The notes: a model not told the origin generated them from the sequence alone. 45,600 nucleotides of DNA from Candidatus Saccharimonadales bacterium (GCA_036507655.1 DATCIS010000011.1:1-45600); one strand, 5' to 3'; counted from the stretch's first letter, positions 3,476-39,988 are shown. Translations and numbers: made by a program.

Positions 3476-3958
3476 TTATTTTTTAGACCAGCCGCTGACC
3501 AAATTAACACTATACACAACCAAGAATAGAAGTGCCGTAACTTCGATTACAGTCCACCAGCTGGGGCTTTGTTCCAAAAACTTGCCAAAAAAGCCGCTGT
3601 TGGAGAGTTCGCCGGCCGCGCCCTCAGATACTAGGCGCAGGTTTTGCACAAACCAAAAACCGGCTACCAGTATTGCTAAGAGGCCGCCAACCATTCTAAA
3701 GCCGGTCATCAGCGGCAATTTAAACAGGCTAATAGCCGCCCAAACTTCAGCTATGATTATACCTACAGCCCAGACCGCTGGCGTATCAAGACCGATACTT
3801 TCTAACCAGTCCCTAAAATCACCAAAGCCGATTGCCTGCAGCACTGCCATGACGATAAGAACAACGCCAGCAAGGCCCGTAATGTTCCATTCTCGGGATG
3901 TTAGTTTTTGCGGGACCGTCATTTGTGTCCACCCTTTTAGTTGAGCTTGCACTGCCAT
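3476..3958 (-). CDS. Hypothetical 4-TM membrane protein (DoxX/MauE-like)
   Basis: ORF track. Four predicted hydrophobic helices. GAGGGA Shine-Dalgarno upstream. Family assignment is tentative. Confidence 0.55.
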   Translation of the reverse strand: MAVQAQLKGWTQMTVPQKLTSREWNITGLAGVVLIVMAVLQAIGFGDFRDWLESIGLDTPAVWAVGIIIAEVWAAISLFKLPLMTGFRMVGGLLAILVAGFWFVQNLRLVSEGAAGELSNSGFFGKFLEQSPSWWTVIEVTALLFLVVYSVNLVSGWSKK

Positions 3959-4031: not shown

Positions 4032-4072
4032 CTGTTAATTTCTATTTTCTGTTTGCTTCTCTCCATTTGTCG

Positions 4073-4160
4073 GCGGCTTCGCCGTATGAGGGACAACCAA
4101 GGGTTTTCCCTCATCGCGCCGGGTACGGAATGAATCCGATACTCGGGCTGCTCCTTTTCC
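4073..4160. repeat. 88-nt structured intergenic element, copy 1 (copy 2 at 22706-22794)
   Basis: The first 42 nt match copy 2 at 41 of 42 positions. The central ~28 nt differ in sequence but form a hairpin in both copies. The last 17 nt (CGGGCTGCTCCTTTTCC) are identical. Confidence 0.7.
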
Positions 4161-4814
4161 TTATTTGGATGCTTGTTTAGACTGATTTTTACGCCATTCT
4201 TCTATTTGGGCGTGGTGGCCGGACAGCAACACCTGAGGGACTTTCATTCCCTGGAATTCTTCAGGCCGGGTATACTGTGGATACTCAACTACGCCGGCTT
4301 GGCTGAAACTCTCGCGCTCAGCACTGGTTTCGCCGCCCAACACTCCCGGGATTAAACGCGTCACAGCATCGATTACCACCATCGCCGGAAGCTCGCCACC
4401 TGTTAAAACGTATTCGCCGATGGAGAATTGTTTATCAACTACGGAGGTGGTGCGTTCGTCATAGCCCTCATAGCGACCGCAAATAATAATCAGGCCGGCT
4501 TCGGTGGATGCGAATTCGCGAGCTATTTTCTGATTAAACAGCTCTCCTCGGGGTGTCATTAACAAAACGTGTGCTCCGGGGTCGGTTTTTTTGGCTTTCT
4601 CAACGGCCGCAAACAGCGGTTCGGGTTTGAGCACCATGCCATCCCCGCCCCCATAAGGTGTATCGTCGACCTGTTTTCTTGGCCCAAGGCCAAAGTCACG
4701 CAGATTTATCAGTTCATATTCAACCAGTTTTTTTTCCTGCGCCTTCCATAGCATGCTGGCATTCAGCACCCCCTCAAATATCTCCGGAAACAAAGTTATA
4801 ACCTTGATTTTCAT
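4161..4814 (-). CDS. trmD: tRNA (guanine37-N1)-methyltransferase
   Basis: ORF track. Contains MKIKVITLFPEIF, DDTPYGGGDGMV and GRYEGYDER, and sits in the conserved rpsP-KH-trmD order. Confidence 0.95.
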   Translation of the reverse strand: MKIKVITLFPEIFEGVLNASMLWKAQEKKLVEYELINLRDFGLGPRKQVDDTPYGGGDGMVLKPEPLFAAVEKAKKTDPGAHVLLMTPRGELFNQKIAREFASTEAGLIIICGRYEGYDERTTSVVDKQFSIGEYVLTGGELPAMVVIDAVTRLIPGVLGGETSAERESFSQAGVVEYPQYTRPEEFQGMKVPQVLLSGHHAQIEEWRKNQSKQASK

Positions 4815-12066: not shown

Positions 12067-12144
12067 GGGGGCATTGGCGCAGTTGGCTAGCGCGCATCCA
12101 TGGCATGGATGAGGTCAAGGGTTCGAATCCCTTATGCTCCACCA
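12067..12144 (+). tRNA. tRNA-Ala (anticodon GGC), CCA encoded
   Basis: GGGGGCA..CATCC ATGGCAT GGATG..GGGTTCGAATCCC..TGCTCC A CCA. It has the G3:U70 alanine identity pair and an A32/U38 anticodon loop. Confidence 0.9.
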
Positions 12145-18412: not shown

Positions 18413-18490
18413 TGGTGGAGCATGGCGGAGTCGAACCGCCGACCTCCGCAATGCGAATGCGGCGCTCTAGCCAACTGAGCTAATGCCCCC
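18413..18490 (-). tRNA. tRNA-Ala (anticodon CGC), CCA encoded
   Basis: Reverse complement reads GGGGGCA TTAGCTCAGTTGGCTAGAGC..CCGCA TTCGCAT TGCGG..GGTTCGACTCC..TGCTCC A CCA, with G3:U70. Confidence 0.9.
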
Positions 18491-18557: not shown

Positions 18558-18772
18558 GAGGTGTTGGAGCTTCGCGCAGCCCACCCTGGGCCCGGGTTTT
18601 ACCCCATAGCAAGTCCTGAGCGGAGTAGTCTGCAATCAGATTACGGAGCTTCAAGGCTTTGCTACCGGGGCGAATTTTTGTAATTATTTTTCTCCGCGAA
18701 TTTTTTGTCTTCGTCCTGCTGTAATTATGCGAAGCAAATTACAACCGGAGGCCCGGTGCGCGAAGCTACCTC
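18558..18772. ncRNA. Candidate structured RNA (~215 nt) carrying the conserved 35-nt core, copy A; strand unresolved
   Basis: A long-range helix pairs GAGGT..AGCTTCGCGCA (18558-18578) with TGCGCGAAGCT ACCTC (18757-18772). The inner hairpin at 18602-18670 holds the core at 18615-18649, which matches 39917-39951 at 34 of 35 positions. Confidence 0.55.
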
Positions 18773-21834: not shown

Positions 21835-22701
21835 TTAAAGTTTCATTTCACGAAGGGCTTTGATGCGAGCTTCAACCGGCGGGTGTGTACTAAATAAAGT
21901 GGCTAAGGTTTTACCAGAAAGCGGGTTGGCAAAGAACATATGCGCCGTTGCAGTATTCTGAATTCTGGTTTTACTCCCCTGCTTACCAATTTTCTCAAGT
22001 GCACCGGCCAGGCCCTCTGGGTATCTAGTAGTAAGGGCTCCGGTTGCATCAGCCAAATATTCTCGCCGGCGGCTGATGGCTAATTGCAACAAAGTCGCAG
22101 CTACAGGGGCTAAAATCACTGCCACAATCGCTAATACCGCGAAGAGTTGGTTGCGGTTGCCGTCCCGGCCGCCGAATATGGTGATGTGCCAAAAGAAATC
22201 GGCAATCATTGAAATGATGCCGACTAGAGCAAAAGCTATAGTGTTAACCCGCATATCGTAATTCTTAATATGCCCCAACTCGTGGGCCATTACGCCTTCA
22301 AGTTCATTGTCATCAAGAGCCTTCAGCAAACCGGTGGTCGCACAAACCGCTGCTTTATCCGGTTTACGACCGGTGGCGAAGGCGTTCAACGCCGGATCGT
22401 CCATGATATAGACTTTCGGCATCGACATACCCTCAGTTATTGCCAGGTTCTCAACAGTCCGCCATAGTCGAGGTTCATCTTTCTTCTGAATTTCTTTGGC
22501 GCGGTTGATTGCCAGAGCCATTTTAGCGCCGGCGAAATAACTGAAGATGGCGTAGCTTAGAGAAAAAAGCCCGATGAAGAAAAGTAGTCCCCTGTTACCA
22601 GTAGCTTGGCTTATCACGTAGGCAAAGGCCCAAAGTAGCGCCAAAAAGGCAGCCAGCAAAATAACAGTACGTCTTTTATTAGAAGAAATCTGTTCGTACA
22701 T
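21835..22701 (-). CDS. htpX: M48-family membrane zinc protease HtpX
   Basis: ORF track. Contains HELGHIKNYD, and a C-terminal motif STHPPVEARI. Confidence 0.93.
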   Translation of the reverse strand: MYEQISSNKRRTVILLAAFLALLWAFAYVISQATGNRGLLFFIGLFSLSYAIFSYFAGAKMALAINRAKEIQKKDEPRLWRTVENLAITEGMSMPKVYIMDDPALNAFATGRKPDKAAVCATTGLLKALDDNELEGVMAHELGHIKNYDMRVNTIAFALVGIISMIADFFWHITIFGGRDGNRNQLFAVLAIVAVILAPVAATLLQLAISRRREYLADATGALTTRYPEGLAGALEKIGKQGSKTRIQNTATAHMFFANPLSGKTLATLFSTHPPVEARIKALREMKL

Positions 22702-22705
22702 AGAA

Positions 22706-22794
22706 GCGGCTTCGCCGTATGAGGGACAACCTAGGGTTTTCCCTCATTGCTGCCTGCCAAAATGGTTCACATTTTGTCGGGCTGCTCCTTTTCC
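22706..22794. repeat. 88-nt structured intergenic element, copy 2
   Basis: See copy 1 at 4073-4160. It ends 4 nt before the htpX start codon (minus-strand sense). Confidence 0.7.
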
Positions 22795-22818: not shown

Positions 22819-23388
22819 TCATTTTGTGTCCGAAAAGTCGACCTTGACCGGTTGGCTGACTTCTTGACGTTGATTCTCTTCAACATCGAAGAATTCACGC
22901 AGTCTAAAGCCTAGCATGCTGGCGAAAATGTTGTTCGGAAAAGTCTGAATCCTGATGTTCAAATCGCGGACAGCGCCATTATAAAACCGGCGGGCGGCCT
23001 GGATTTTATCTTCGGTGTCGGTAACATCAGACTGCAGCTGCTGAAAATTCTCGGTAGCCCGCAGTTGAGGATAGGCCTCTGCCACCGCAAAAAGGCTTTT
23101 GAGTGCGGCCTGGAACATGTTATCGGCCTGAGCGGCTTCGCCAACAGTTTTAGCTTTTAAGGCTTCGGTCCGGGCTTTAGTGACCTCTGTGAATACCTGC
23201 CGTTCGTGTTTCGCATAACCTTTAACCGTCTCAACTAAATTGGGAATCAGGTCATAGCGGCGTTTCAGTTGGACTGTGATATCGCTCCAGGCTTCATCTA
23301 CACGTACTTTGGAGCGCACCAAACTGTTGTAGATGTAGATTATAAAAAGCAGCAGTGCTGCCACGATTGCTATGATTACCCAGCTCAT
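22819..23388 (-). CDS. lemA: LemA-family protein
   Basis: ORF track. N-terminal TM helix plus YNSLV, RRYDLIPNLVETVKGYAKHE and ARRFYNGAVRDLN. Confidence 0.92.
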   Translation of the reverse strand: MSWVIIAIVAALLLFIIYIYNSLVRSKVRVDEAWSDITVQLKRRYDLIPNLVETVKGYAKHERQVFTEVTKARTEALKAKTVGEAAQADNMFQAALKSLFAVAEAYPQLRATENFQQLQSDVTDTEDKIQAARRFYNGAVRDLNIRIQTFPNNIFASMLGFRLREFFDVEENQRQEVSQPVKVDFSDTK

Positions 23389-24652: not shown

Positions 24653-24739
24653 TGGTGGGCGAAAGAGGACTTGAACCTCCACGAGCTTGCGCTCACTAGC
24701 TCCTGAAGCTAGCGCGTCTACCAATTCCGCCATTCGCCC
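24653..24739 (-). tRNA. tRNA-Leu (anticodon CAG), long variable arm, CCA encoded
   Basis: Reverse complement reads GGGCGAA TGGCGGAATTGGTAGACGC GCTAGC TTCAGGA GCTAG..GGAGGTTCAAGTCCTC TTCGCCC A CC(A). Confidence 0.88.
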
Positions 24740-26632: not shown

Positions 26633-26717
26633 GGGTGAGTGGTGAAATTGGTATACACGCAGCCTTGAGGTGGCTGTGCCGAAAGGCGTGGAGGTTCAAG
26701 TCCTCTCTCACCCACCA
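26633..26717 (+). tRNA. tRNA-Leu (anticodon GAG), CCA encoded
   Basis: GGGTGAG..CAGCC TTGAGGT GGCTG, variable arm TGCCGAAAGGCGT, GGAGGTTCAAGTCCTCT CTCACCC A CCA. Confidence 0.88.
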
Positions 26718-26790
26718 TTCGACTCGCTTTCGCTCGCTCATGGTAAACCATTTGCGAGTTGAATGATCCTGAACGTAGTCGAAGGACCAG

Positions 26791-26867
26791 GGGCGCTTAG
26801 CTCAGTTGGCTAGAGCATCTCGTTTACACCGAGGAGGTCGGGGGTTCAAGTCCCTCAGCGCCCACCA
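26791..26867 (+). tRNA. tRNA-Val (anticodon TAC), CCA encoded
   Basis: GGGCGCT TAGCTCAGTTGGCTAGAGC A TCTCG TTTACAC CGAGG..GGGGGTTCAAGTCCCTC AGCGCCC A CCA. Confidence 0.9.
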
Positions 26868-26888
26868 GAATTGATAGAATATAACCAT

Positions 26889-26964
26889 GGCGCTTTAGCT
26901 CAGTTGGTAGAGCAGAGGCTTGAAGAGCCTTGTGTCCTCGGTTCGAGTCCGAGAGGCGCCACCA
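26889..26964 (+). tRNA. tRNA-Phe (anticodon GAA), CCA encoded
   Basis: GGCGCTT TAGCTCAGTTGGTAGAGC A GAGGC TTGAAGA GCCTT..CTCGGTTCGAGTCCGAG AGGCGCC A CCA. Confidence 0.9.
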
Positions 26965-26987
26965 GAATTGACCACGACCTTTTATTC

Positions 26988-27023
26988 AGAAACGGTAGCT
27001 TAAGTTTTCTAGCTGCCGTTTCT
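26988..27023 (+). terminator. Probable terminator of the Leu-Val-Phe tRNA unit
   Basis: 13-bp stem AGAAACGGTAGCT / AGCTGCCGTTTCT (one U-G wobble on the plus strand), followed by TCATG after a TTTCT run. Confidence 0.5.
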
Positions 27024-27049
27024 TCATGTACGGTCGGCTCAATTCTTAA

Positions 27050-27077
27050 CCCCAAAGCGGAACTCCCCGCTTTGGGG
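27050..27077. other. Perfect 11-bp hairpin of unknown role
   Basis: CCCCAAAGCGG aactcc CCGCTTTGGGG. It sits just upstream of the extended -10 box TGGTATAAT (27092-27100). Confidence 0.5.
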
Positions 27078-27116
27078 ACCCCGGGAAAATTTGGTATAAT
27101 TACCCCTGTTCTTAAC

Positions 27117-27148
27117 AAAAACGCAAGATCTGGTCGAGTTGCGTTTTT
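27117..27148. terminator. Conserved terminator-like hairpin X2
   Basis: AAAAACGCAA / TTGCGTTTTT followed by GAGAGGAG. It has the same arms as X1 with a different loop, and lies between TGGTATAAT and tRNA-Gly. Confidence 0.6.
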
Positions 27149-27233
27149 GAGAGGAGCGACATAGCACTAAGCCGAAGCTTTTGGCTTTAGACCCATCAAA
27201 GACAAAACGAGGCGAGCGCGTTAGTCGCGACGA

Positions 27234-27310
27234 GCGGGTGTAGCTCAGTTGTTTAGAGCGCTTCCTTGCCAAGGAAGAGGTCGAGAGTTAGAGTCTCTTC
27301 ACCCGCACCA
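27234..27310 (+). tRNA. tRNA-Gly (anticodon GCC), CCA encoded, atypical D- and T-loops
   Basis: GCGGGTG TAGCTC AGTTGTTTA GAGC G CTTCC TTGCCAA GGAAG AGGTC GAGAG TTAGAGT CTCTT CACCCGC A CCA. Confidence 0.8.
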
Positions 27311-27992: not shown

Positions 27993-28024
27993 GATGTTTG
28001 AAATGCGTCAACGATGCCGCACCA
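27993..28024 (+). repeat. GCACCA-terminated structured motif, copy R1
   Basis: GATGTTTGAAATGCGTCAACGATGCCGCACCA. Matches R2 at 28 of 32 positions. Confidence 0.7.
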
Positions 28025-28154
28025 TTATAGTTGCCTTCCAGTAAGCCTTTTAGGGGAGAATTTCACAGACAAAACCTGAGTTAAAGATTATGTAAAACAT
28101 GTTTTAAGTTTTACACTTACTAAAGATGTAACTCTAATGAAAGGGGTAAATGAA

Positions 28155-28541: not shown

Positions 28542-28672
28542 AAGATCAAAAAATAGTTTCAAGTCCTTGATTAGATCCTAAACACAAGACACTAAGCCGG
28601 CTTCAAGTATTAAGTAAGTCGCCTGATAATCCGAATAACTCAACCAGGCGCTTTAGTTTATAATCTGTTATA

Positions 28673-28716
28673 GCAGCGATAGCTGACGTTTGAAATGCGT
28701 CAACTATGTTGCACCA
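28673..28716 (+). repeat. GCACCA-terminated structured motif, copy R2 (full hairpin)
   Basis: GCAGC G ATAG CT GACGT TTGAAAT GCGTC AA CTAT GTTGC ACCA. It forms three stacked helices and a 7-nt loop. Confidence 0.7.
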
Positions 28717-28796
28717 ATTCAACCCAAACGATACTTCAACCGGGAGCTTTCTAACATTTGGGGTCATTAAGGCCTCTTTTTGTTATAGTTAGATTA

Positions 28797-30748: not shown

Positions 30749-30852
30749 AACCAGTGGTTGAAAAATTCAATCAGGCATCAAGCAGGTTGCCCGATAAGTT
30801 AAACACCTCAGCAAGGTGTTTTAGTTTATAATCATTATTAGCGGTGAGGGAT

Positions 30853-30884
30853 GACGTTTGAAATGCGTAAACTATCCTGCACCA
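30853..30884 (+). repeat. GCACCA-terminated structured motif, copy R3
   Basis: GACGTTTGAAATGCGTAAACTATCCTGCACCA. Matches R2 at 29 of 32 positions. Similarity to R2 extends about 70 nt further upstream and includes TTTAGTTTATAATC. Confidence 0.7.
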
Positions 30885-30885
30885 A

Positions 30886-30915
30886 AAAAATTCCCAACCA
30901 AGGTCGGGAATTTTT
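30886..30915. terminator. Bidirectional intrinsic terminator
   Basis: AAAAATTCCC aaccaaggtc GGGAATTTTT. It sits between the convergent 29093-30748 (plus) and 30940-31083 (minus) genes. Confidence 0.7.
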
Positions 30916-31193: not shown

Positions 31194-31268
31194 GGCACCG
31201 TGGCCGAGGAATTAGGCAAAGGTCTGCAAAACCTTTTTACGCGGGTGTAAATCCCGTCGGTGCCTCCA
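31194..31268 (+). tRNA. tRNA-Cys (anticodon GCA), CCA encoded, non-canonical T-loop
   Basis: GGCACCG..AAGGT CTGCAAA ACCTT..GCGGG TGTAAAT CCCGT CGGTGCC T CCA. It has discriminator U73. TATAAT lies at 31174-31179. Confidence 0.8.
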
Positions 31269-31289
31269 AATTTAAGAATTTGACAAACT

Positions 31290-31375
31290 GGGCGAGTGCT
31301 GGAATGGTTTACAGAGCGGACTTAAAATCCGTGCCCTGAAAAGGGTTGTGGGTTCGAATCCCACCTCGCCCACCA
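31290..31375 (+). tRNA. tRNA-Leu (anticodon TAA), CCA encoded
   Basis: GGGCGAG..GCGGA CTTAAAA TCCGT, variable arm GCCCTGAAAAGGGTT, GTGGGTTCGAATCCCAC CTCGCCC A CCA. Confidence 0.9.
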
Positions 31376-39892: not shown

Positions 39893-39988
39893 GAGGTTAC
39901 TTGCCCCGTACCAAAACCTGAGCGGAGTAGTCTGCAATCAGATTATGGAGCGTCAAGTTTTTGGTACTGGGGTGCTCCCGTGCACCTC
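39893..39988. ncRNA. Candidate structured RNA carrying the conserved 35-nt core, copy B; lies between the uvrA start codon and a minus-strand TATAAT
   Basis: GAGGT (39893-39897) pairs with ACCTC (39984-39988). The inner hairpin is 39904-39972 and the core is 39917-39951. The outer stem GTACCAAAA / TTTTGGTAC differs from copy A (TAGCAA / TTGCTA) but keeps its pairing. Confidence 0.55.

Follow-up and report, generated by a model that had tools for sequence, protein, structure and literature searches.

A previously undescribed family of small structured repeats, probably dispersed in the manner of REP and Rickettsia palindromic elements, in Saccharimonadales and other bacteria

Two copies of the repeat and their neighbours

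The DNA analysed here, a stretch of 45.6 kb (47.6% G+C) from a Candidatus Saccharimonadales bacterium that is referred to below as the window, encodes trmD (4161-4814), htpX (21835-22701) and lemA (22819-23388) on its minus strand, all three confirmed by Pfam. Homologues of TrmD and HtpX with 80-92% identity are labelled Candidatus Saccharibacteria or Saccharimonadales, which identifies the source of the window as a Saccharibacterium from soil. Two copies of a structured repeat are located next to these genes, both on the minus strand, whose direction is taken here as the forward orientation. The tail of copy 1 directly abuts the stop codon of trmD (4161-4163), and copy 2 lies between lemA and htpX, ending 4 nt before the ATG of htpX. 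Read on the minus strand, copy 1 consists of the tail, a central hairpin, a conserved hairpin and a small hairpin with a GAA loop; this last hairpin, CGGC-GAA-GCCG, situated at the far end of both window copies, is an optional element present only in some Saccharibacteria copies. The features of the window are as follows.

4042-4072, minus strand: remnant of a former trmD 3' end, encoding DKWREANRK and a stop (alignment with the trmD ends of L134, L136 and L138)
4073-4160, minus strand: repeat copy 1, with a subfamily A central hairpin (fold; covariance model R1, 78.3 bits at 4083-4163, minus strand)
4074-4084, minus strand: optional small hairpin CGGC-GAA-GCCG of copy 1 (fold; comparison with other copies)
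4086-4114, minus strand: conserved imperfect hairpin of copy 1, AUGAGGGAAAACC-CUU-GGUUGUCCCUCAU, with one A.G mismatch (fold, covariation, polarity statistics)
4116-4148, minus strand: central hairpin of copy 1, subfamily A, GCCCGAGUAUCGGA-UUCAU-UCCGUACCCGGCGC (fold, homologous copies, covariation)
4151-4160, minus strand: tail of copy 1, GGAAAAGGAG (same tail, with at most two mismatches, one-sided in 120 of 137 hairpins elsewhere)
22706-22794, minus strand: repeat copy 2, with a subfamily B central hairpin (fold; model R1, 72.7 bits)
22719-22747, minus strand: conserved imperfect hairpin of copy 2 (sequence match, fold)
22749-22784, minus strand: central hairpin of copy 2, subfamily B, …GACAAAAUG-UGAAC-CAUUUUG… (fold; relatives in other genomes)
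22785-22794, minus strand: tail of copy 2, GGAAAAGGAG (sequence match)
1893-1963, 12068-12141, 18416-18489, 24656-24739, 26633-27307 and 31194-31372: tRNA genes (Rfam)

An earlier note on this DNA had described two copies at 4073-4160 and 22706-22794 that share a module identical at 41 of 42 positions, with the single difference in a loop, and an identical tail of 17 nt, around different central hairpins, and every one of these elements was recovered. The 42-nt module GCGGCTTCGCCGTATGAGGGACAACCWAGGGTTTTCCCTCAT has two matches in the window and none further with 3 mismatches allowed (0 in shuffled sequences), and the only difference between both modules is an A/T exchange at 4099/22732, inside the 3-nt loop. 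The 17-nt tail CGGGCTGCTCCTTTTCC occurs exactly twice in the window, and a search with the covariance model, filters off, also returns exactly two copies, with 78 and 73 bits. Of the flanking genes named in that note, trmD, lemA and htpX stand, while the gene downstream of copy 1 (3476-3958), which had been called DoxX-like, had no hit in a Pfam search and could not be confirmed as such.

Other repeats and RNA genes are also found in the window. A second, unrelated repeat of 72 nt (18599-18670 and 39901-39972, 85% identical) forms a long hairpin, is intergenic in both places, and has fold z-scores of -2.8 to -4.8 and no Rfam hit; its inner part CCTGAGCGGAGTAGTCTGCAATCAGATTAYGGAGC is conserved and its outer stem shows compensatory changes (CCCCATAGCAAG/CTTTGCTACCGGGG versus CCCCGTACCAAAA/TTTTTGGTACTGGGG). 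The members of a third repeat family (27993-28040, 28603-28732 and 30771-30900), two of which are 75% alike over 115 nt, hold a common hairpin, TGACGTTTGAAATGCGTCA, followed by GCACCA, and are located upstream of plus-strand ORFs, where they may possibly represent a shared leader or regulatory site. The window also contains ten tRNA genes according to Rfam, including a cluster of four at 26.6-27.3 kb, and neither copy of the repeat adjoins a tRNA.

Architecture of the unit

In the forward orientation, the unit starts with the tail GGAAAAGGAG, usually followed by CAGC, continues with a GC-rich module of 0-66 nt and the sequence (GC)GAU, and ends with a 13-bp imperfect hairpin, GAGGGAAAACC-NNN-GGTTGTCCCTC, the loop of which is free. 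The tail also appears as GGAAAAAGAG, GGAAAGGGAG or GGAATGGGAG, the expandable module in the middle contains one or two GC-rich hairpins, and 2-4 further closing pairs, which covary, lengthen the stem GAGGGAAAACC-NNN-GGUUGUCCCUC. Of 137 hairpins, 120 have a GGAAAAGGAG-like tail (at most two differences, at most 100 nt away) on one side only, for which a rough estimate of the chance expectation is about 10% or less, and this indicates that hairpin and tail constitute a single unit with polarity.

Among 79 distinct copies, the lone mismatch of the stem is A.G in 60, an A-U pair takes its place in 16 and C.U in 2, and the 3-nt loop exhibits 20 different sequences. The distance from tail to stem ranges from 14 to 80 nt, and the length of the unit, from the tail to the end of the hairpin, from 39 to 105 nt. 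The tail-to-hairpin spacing is divisible by 3 in only 21 of these 79 copies, which indicates that the unit itself is not coding; a small ORF or coding module was discarded on this ground and also because the ATG of the stem is not conserved (ATAG, TCG and TT closures are found instead). The motif GGAAAA appears three times per unit, and the tail provides a 7-bp match to the anti-Shine-Dalgarno sequence when paired by eye against the standard 16S 3' end. Closing pairs and tails exist in flavours that depend on the phylum, an AT/AT closure with GGAAAAGGAGCAGC versus an ATAG/CTAT closure with GGAAAGGGAGAC, and this suggests long residence.

Folding and covariation

Both copies of the window fold into hairpins on either strand, with z-scores of -3.4 to -5.5, in agreement with the earlier proposal of a structured element. 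In an alignment of 43 sequences that includes variant copies, two-sided changes were observed for 9 of the 13 base pairs in the main hairpin. The fraction of paired cells is 90.9%, compared to 39-56% for slid controls, and the covariation values were reached by none of 500 shuffles. Variant stems carry paired substitutions (GAAGGA/TCCTTC, GAGAGAAAACG/CGTTTTCTCTC, AAGAAA/TGTCTT, AAGAAAAACC/GGTTTGTCTT and AUGAGAAACCCC/GGGGUGUCUCAU), several of these variants can be found within one genome (L033, L138 and L012), and covarying pairs extend beyond the stem into the flanks (AT/AT, AG/CT, TT/AA and TC/GA).

The two central hairpins of the window represent two subfamilies with a common outer frame, GCCCGA…CCGGCGC, and a different apical part. 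Relatives of copy 1 (subfamily A) were found at L001, L011, L020, L043, L055, L064 and L110, and those of copy 2 (subfamily B) at L010, L012, L049, L053, L073, L033 and L138, so that either subfamily is also represented in further Saccharibacteria. The subfamily A hairpin shows compensatory changes at 4 of 12 pairs and 97% of cells paired, in an alignment in which one row (L030) was padded by hand with one C. The covariation of main and central hairpins demonstrates that both are real, and in its behaviour the central module resembles the variable stems found in structured RNAs. The idea of conserved ends around a variable hairpin with preserved structure, and of a non-random element, is supported. 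In 66 distinct central modules, no strand bias of G-U pairs was detected (39 forward versus 36 reverse), nor any difference in folding energy between strands (p = 0.43). Tail-to-tail inverted doublets, present in L093, L035 and L033, are predicted to form hairpins of about 200 nt with -90 to -107 kcal/mol.

Distribution and copy number

Public collections were scanned with the exact stem pattern GAGGGANAACCNNNGGTTNTCCCTC, which retrieved 133 loci, 32 from a set of bacteria and archaea with one genome per species and 101 from metagenomes; owing to the use of an exact pattern, the invariance of the stem and the persistence of 'orthologous' copies in this collection are partly selected for. According to the record titles, which hold the depositors' own taxon labels, the loci belong on the CPR side to Saccharimonadales/Saccharibacteria, Nomurabacteria and Peribacteria, and elsewhere to Dormibacterota, 'Chloroflexi' soil MAGs, Omnitrophota, Planctomycetales, a Clostridia MAG and a Betaproteobacteria MAG, so that at least eight phylum-level labels are represented. 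Conservation limited to this one genome, an outcome that the earlier note had contemplated, is therefore ruled out. The same scan gave 0 matches in viral contigs, and so offers no link to phages.

The earlier note had been unable to match the sequences to a known family, and none was found here. Rfam 15 detected only tRNAs in the window at gathering thresholds, and searches of both copies at permissive E-values yielded matches at chance level (E of at least 0.7). Full-text searches of the literature for the stem sequences retrieved unrelated primers only, and keyword searches on CPR rRNA insertions and palindromic elements retrieved no description of the repeat. With no Rfam match and no description in the literature searched, the repeat is a previously undescribed family.

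Copy number was examined with model R1, filters off. It identified 2 copies in the window (45.6 kb), 2 in L138 (20.6 kb), 0 in L134 and L136 (27 kb) and 1 variant copy in five other relatives (74.5 kb), with 3 copies in a total of about 122 kb from unselected relatives. This corresponds roughly to one copy per 20-40 kb, that is, to tens per genome of 1 Mb. The window is represented in two soil metagenomes, where the summed contig depth over the central hairpin (4114-4146) is 48-105 versus 7 for the flanks, a 7-15x excess, and loose ends contain further stem variants with other flanks, one of which matches L073, a near-identical subfamily B copy adjoining polA. A dense array was observed in the Clostridia MAG contig CANPWT010000049.1 (L003), where at least 5 minimal copies, with the tail joined straight to the hairpin and no central module, are accompanied by diverged variants within 8 kb, in one orientation.

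Genomic contexts

The flanking sequences of the loci fall into 58 clusters, the number of truly independent loci being somewhat lower, and about one third of the independent loci adjoin tRNA or rRNA genes. Copies in the forward orientation, co-directional with the genes, comprise both window copies, those between lemA and htpX in L020 and L057, and others located after a Y-family polymerase gene (L011 and L088), after pnp (L054), before hrcA (L055), between ispE and spoVG (L111), before rpsG (L072), and 8-40 nt upstream of tRNAs (L005, L016, L021, L032, L040, L043, L063, L108, L116 and L138). Copies in reverse orientation to the genes are found in the rplD-rplW-rplB region (L022, two copies), after an RNase J gene (L019), before truB (L001), before polA (L073), between khpA and trmD (L138), and in a cluster of 18 Dormibacterota loci, which the search pattern had selected, where the repeat separates fumC from the gene that follows. 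In the reverse Dormibacterota loci, 3-21 nt separate the tail from the start codon downstream of it, and the tail is able to pair with an AGGAA/AGGGA sequence that comes after it.

The earlier note had placed both copies upstream of membrane-protein genes and raised the idea of a link with the envelope or with stress. The neighbours recorded here (htpX, hrcA, spoVG, rpsG, rplW, rplB, tRNAs and 23S rRNA) are unrelated to each other, and do not support this link. Nor did a recurring protein family appear near the repeats in about 0.9 Mb of loci: an associated transposase or endonuclease was sought by all-against-all clustering of ORFs within 4 kb, which gave only the housekeeping families of orthologous loci. 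In the tRNA arrays of L021, L005, L032, L042 and L069 (of Omnitrophota/Planctomycetes type), a related variant, GGAAAGGGAUGGUUGUCC…GAAGGGAAAAC-NNN-GUUUUCCCUUC, often precedes the repeat, resulting in the arrangement tRNA-variant-element-tRNA.

Within rRNA operons, the repeat occupies the position immediately 5' of the 23S gene (L035), the 23S-5S spacer (L093), the helix-45 region (L033 and L121) and helix 79, with the forward orientation in L119 and L075 and the reverse one in L033. The reversed variant refuted the notion that all rRNA copies are co-oriented with the rRNA. The sequence upstream of the copies in L093 and L035 was considered as a possible 16S 3' end, and Rfam assigned these places to the 23S-5S spacer and to the region just upstream of 23S, respectively; this upstream sequence is the inverted partner copy. 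The partial 23S gene of L033 (metagenome contig Ga0187779_10039978) holds at least 4 members of the family, including the helix-45-region copy, the reversed helix-79 variant with a large loop insertion and an inverted doublet near the 5' domain. A part of the CPR-type 23S insertions is thus built from this repeat. Metatranscriptome contigs matched to this 23S come from many organisms and are uninformative, and no RNA runs were found to contain the window.

Two different group I introns of 23S rRNA carry the repeat as the last 80-100 nt before the 3' splice site, between P9 and that site. One intron is inserted at about E. coli position 2593 (L010, L012, L049, L053 and L076) and the other at about 1917 (L012). 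Other introns lack the repeat, the Rfam group I model ends upstream of it in L010, and Rfam found no group I intron match at the window copies, for which a group I intron was rejected, as they match no P1-P9 catalytic core.

Two proteins read through the unit. In L110, the 814-codon reading frame of topA runs straight through it, with 25 extra residues (GKGAAGVAESFRAPRDEGKPQVVPQ) that correspond to 75 nt, beginning with the first nucleotide of the tail and reaching 2 nt beyond the hairpin stem, and this extent delimits the unit. Similarly, truB of L008 reads through a copy in frame, giving rise to GKGAAGFAGAPHVEGKPLVVPQ.

Filled and empty sites in close relatives

Orthologous loci were retrieved through homologues of TrmD and HtpX, and the filled and empty sites compared below come from relatives whose proteins are 81-92% identical. 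Between trmD and the next gene, the site is filled only in the window, and the spacers of L134-L139 measure 64-89 nt without the repeat. Downstream of copy 1, the remnant DKWREANRK followed by a stop matches the C-terminus of TrmD in relatives (EKWREANSR and a stop), and the working trmD of the window ends in a different segment of 43 nt. Both observations indicate that the repeat came in along with a substitute gene end, or that its arrival followed a long duplication of the target. This looks more like an allele replacement by recombination than a clean transposition, an account that does not fully explain the site. At the khpA-trmD site the situation is the opposite: it is empty in the window (15-nt spacer) and filled in L138 and L139, where a variant in reverse orientation directly adjoins the stop codon of khpA.

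The lemA-htpX site is filled in the window with a subfamily B copy and in L020 and L057 with a subfamily A copy, at the same position 4 nt before the ATG, and it is empty in five relatives (L140-L144). In the closest of these relatives, whose HtpX is 92% identical, the site is empty and the genes overlap as TAATG. Closely related Saccharibacteria have therefore gained or lost the unit at different sites. The comparison of filled and empty sites revealed no consistent target-site duplication, at most a possible CAG in topA.

Comparison with known elements

REP/REPIN elements of Proteobacteria, which are mobilised by RAYT (Y1 HUH) transposases whose gene is typically flanked by REPs, share several properties with the repeat. 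Both are short imperfect palindromes with a conserved flanking motif, present in tens to hundreds of extragenic copies of either orientation in operon spacers and after stop codons, as singlets and as inverted doublets that form long hairpins, and with copies that differ between close relatives. However, the repeat lacks the GTAG tetranucleotide that REPs conserve at the 5' foot of the hairpin, its consensus showing (GC)GAT before the stem and GGAAAAGGAG further upstream, and its purine tail of 10-14 nt is set off from the hairpin by an expandable hairpin module. Moreover, no RAYT gene was seen near the repeats in about 0.9 Mb of loci, the density is lower (about one per 20-40 kb), copies are also found in rRNA, introns and coding sequences, and the repeat is conserved across phyla, whereas REPs are species-specific.

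Rickettsia palindromic elements (RPEs) are likewise small palindromic repeats found in RNA genes and spacers and as translated in-frame insertions, as here in topA (L110) and truB (L008). They measure 100-150 bp and are confined to Rickettsiales, in contrast to a unit of 39-105 nt with a modular centre under at least eight phylum-level labels, so that the likeness is one of behaviour alone, the hosts here being unrelated phyla. With the intervening sequences of 23S rRNA (helix 25/45, removed by RNase III, which leaves the 23S fragmented), the repeat has in common that it adds stem-loops to 23S helix loops, including the helix-45 region (L033 and L121), and the modelled duplexes of the doublets look suitable for RNase III; it differs in occurring also outside rRNA and in that single units are too short for classical RNase III substrates. 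The mobile GC clusters and double-hairpin elements of the mitochondria of yeasts and Allomyces are GC-rich hairpins in spacers, introns, variable regions of rRNA and occasionally coding sequences. Their resemblance lies in the scattered GC-rich hairpin modules and in the replacement of a gene end with the old end left behind, as in trmD here, although these elements are organellar and unrelated in sequence.

Other candidates were rejected. The ends of a MITE should be mutual inverted repeats, and GGAAAAGGAG… and …GGTTGTCCCTC are not, nor is there a consistent target-site duplication; for an integron attC site, the conserved ends (tail and hairpin) do not pair and the GTTRRRY core is missing. 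The defining motifs of hammerhead and other self-cleaving ribozymes, of boxA and of K-turns are absent, as judged from the sequence, with ribozymes also covered by Rfam. The repeat behaves as REP/REPIN elements and RPEs do, and inside rRNA as intervening sequences do, but it is not known to show all the defining features of any of these families, nor does it show those of MITEs.

Interpretation

Unrelated contexts, both orientations, differences among relatives and locations in rRNA, introns and proteins point to a palindromic repeat dispersed like REP/REPIN elements or RPEs, and the inverted doublets, the lack of a strand-specific RNA signature and the lack of a consistent neighbour lead to the same reading. 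With a probability of roughly 55%, the repeat represents a new REP/RPE-like family of small, non-autonomous, dispersed structured repeats carried passively in transcripts, for which bacterial REP/REPIN elements and RPEs are the closest analogues. The unit occurs in either orientation relative to transcription and at positions that tolerate a compact hairpin (short operon spacers, tRNA leaders, loops of 23S helices, the 3' stretch of introns and, in frame, two proteins), and its inverted pairs build hairpins of about 200 nt in rRNA operons. It behaves like selfish or domesticated repeat DNA and not like a regulator of envelope-stress genes. Of the two possibilities offered by the earlier note, a structured DNA repeat consequently fits better than a functional RNA, and the numerous copies of mixed orientation and context that it associated with selfish repeats are largely what was observed. 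A cis-regulatory RNA, leader or riboswitch was dismissed in view of the many unrelated contexts and neighbouring genes, the two orientations and a presence that varies among close relatives.

According to this reading of a dispersed repeat, the unit would spread at the DNA level, either in trans, through an enzyme (HUH/RAYT-like or other) that recognises the imperfect hairpin and the tail, or through recombination in which relatives exchange filled alleles, a route suggested by the displaced 3' end of trmD, or in both ways. A fixed imperfect hairpin with a single-stranded tail is the type of signal used by single-strand DNA enzymes that recognise hairpins. The window copies are read as lineage-specific insertions, which would simply be co-transcribed with trmD and lemA-htpX, and any effects on mRNA stability, processing or translation would be secondary.

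Several observations count against a mobile repeat: no mobilising gene was found near the copies, terminal inverted repeats are absent, and target-site duplications are not clear. In addition, the repeat keeps the same position in many Dormibacterota loci, albeit loci selected by the search pattern, and lies beside tRNA or rRNA genes in about one third of the independent loci, and its arrival at trmD with a replacement gene end argues against simple transposition. Selfish repeats are normally lineage-specific, and the near identity of stem and tail across very distant phyla hints at a conserved binding partner or function. A tentative alternative, judged a good deal less probable than the dispersed repeat, is consequently an ancient module recognised by a conserved factor as RNA or single-stranded DNA, which would be either a 'punctuation' element or the substrate of an undescribed hairpin-specific mobilisation system.

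The conservation of tail and stem sequence under at least eight phylum-level labels could also reflect a host-functional RNA module included in many transcripts as a processing, stability or insulator element, a proposal that appears unlikely. Under this proposal, the tail would be in one orientation a strong Shine-Dalgarno mimic (AAAGGAG) binding the 16S 3' end, as STAB-SD-type 5' stabilisers do, and in the other an anti-Shine-Dalgarno mimic (CUCCUUUUCC) that could mask the ribosome-binding site of the next gene, and the inverted doublets would be RNase III sites in pre-rRNA. It agrees with the retention of motifs next to a central hairpin whose length differs between orthologous loci (0-66 nt), a pattern known from many structured RNAs, with the frequency of copies beside tRNAs and inside rRNA operons, with the long duplexes of the doublets, and with the reverse Dormibacterota tails 3-21 nt before a start codon, able to pair with AGGAA/AGGGA. 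Nevertheless, both orientations relative to host transcription are used, even in the same 23S loop, G-U pairs and folding energy lack strand asymmetry, topA and truB hold in-frame insertions, orthologous sites of close relatives lack the repeat, the neighbouring genes have no common class, and the Shine-Dalgarno-like tail has no start codon at a distance that could be used. The indifference to the direction of transcription would suit a site in double-stranded DNA to which a conserved dimeric protein binds (an operator, partition or architectural site), with inverted half-sites GGTTTTCCCTC around an uncontacted 3-bp centre and a third GGAAAA motif in the tail. The invariant stem with a free centre (20 loop variants), the three GGAAAA motifs per unit and the position of copy 2 and of L055 upstream of the heat-shock genes htpX and hrcA are in line with such a site. 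It is even so improbable, for pairing reaches into covarying flanks, the neighbouring modules are also hairpins, different stem variants coexist in one genome (L033, L138 and L012), the neighbour genes are unrelated, and a regulon would not be expected to include positions inside rRNA, introns or coding sequences. Finally, the presence of the repeat at the 3' end of two 23S introns, where it fills the 80-100 nt that precede the splice site, might suggest that the intergenic copies are 'solo 3' ends' of degenerate group I introns or an escaped peripheral P9.x domain. This origin is highly improbable: no intron core lies upstream of the window copies, where the coding sequence of trmD or lemA abuts, the Rfam group I model ends before the repeat, most copies are outside introns and other introns lack it, the topA insertion is a bare 75-nt unit, and no residual P3-P9 sequence was seen at any non-intron copy examined.

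Significance

If confirmed, the family would be a rare example in which very distant, mostly uncultivated phyla have a small dispersed repeat with a near-identical core in common, a reach that would imply either that a recognition partner is conserved or that the repeat spreads by some undescribed means. Should the reading of a module recognised by a conserved factor be true, a 'punctuation' element that binds ribosomes or RNases would organise how segments of tRNA, rRNA and mRNA are processed or stabilised in groups such as CPR, Dormibacterota and Planctomycetota, or a mobilisation system would be shared across phyla, and the inverted doublets would be the building blocks of unusual CPR 23S rRNA insertions. 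The covariance model R1 can be used as a marker for a census across metagenome-assembled genomes. The repeat also accounts for 'extra' peptide segments in topA and truB, it warns against calling such hairpins gene-specific regulators, and it explains in concrete terms some of the puzzling insertions seen in 23S rRNA genes and group I introns of CPR bacteria.
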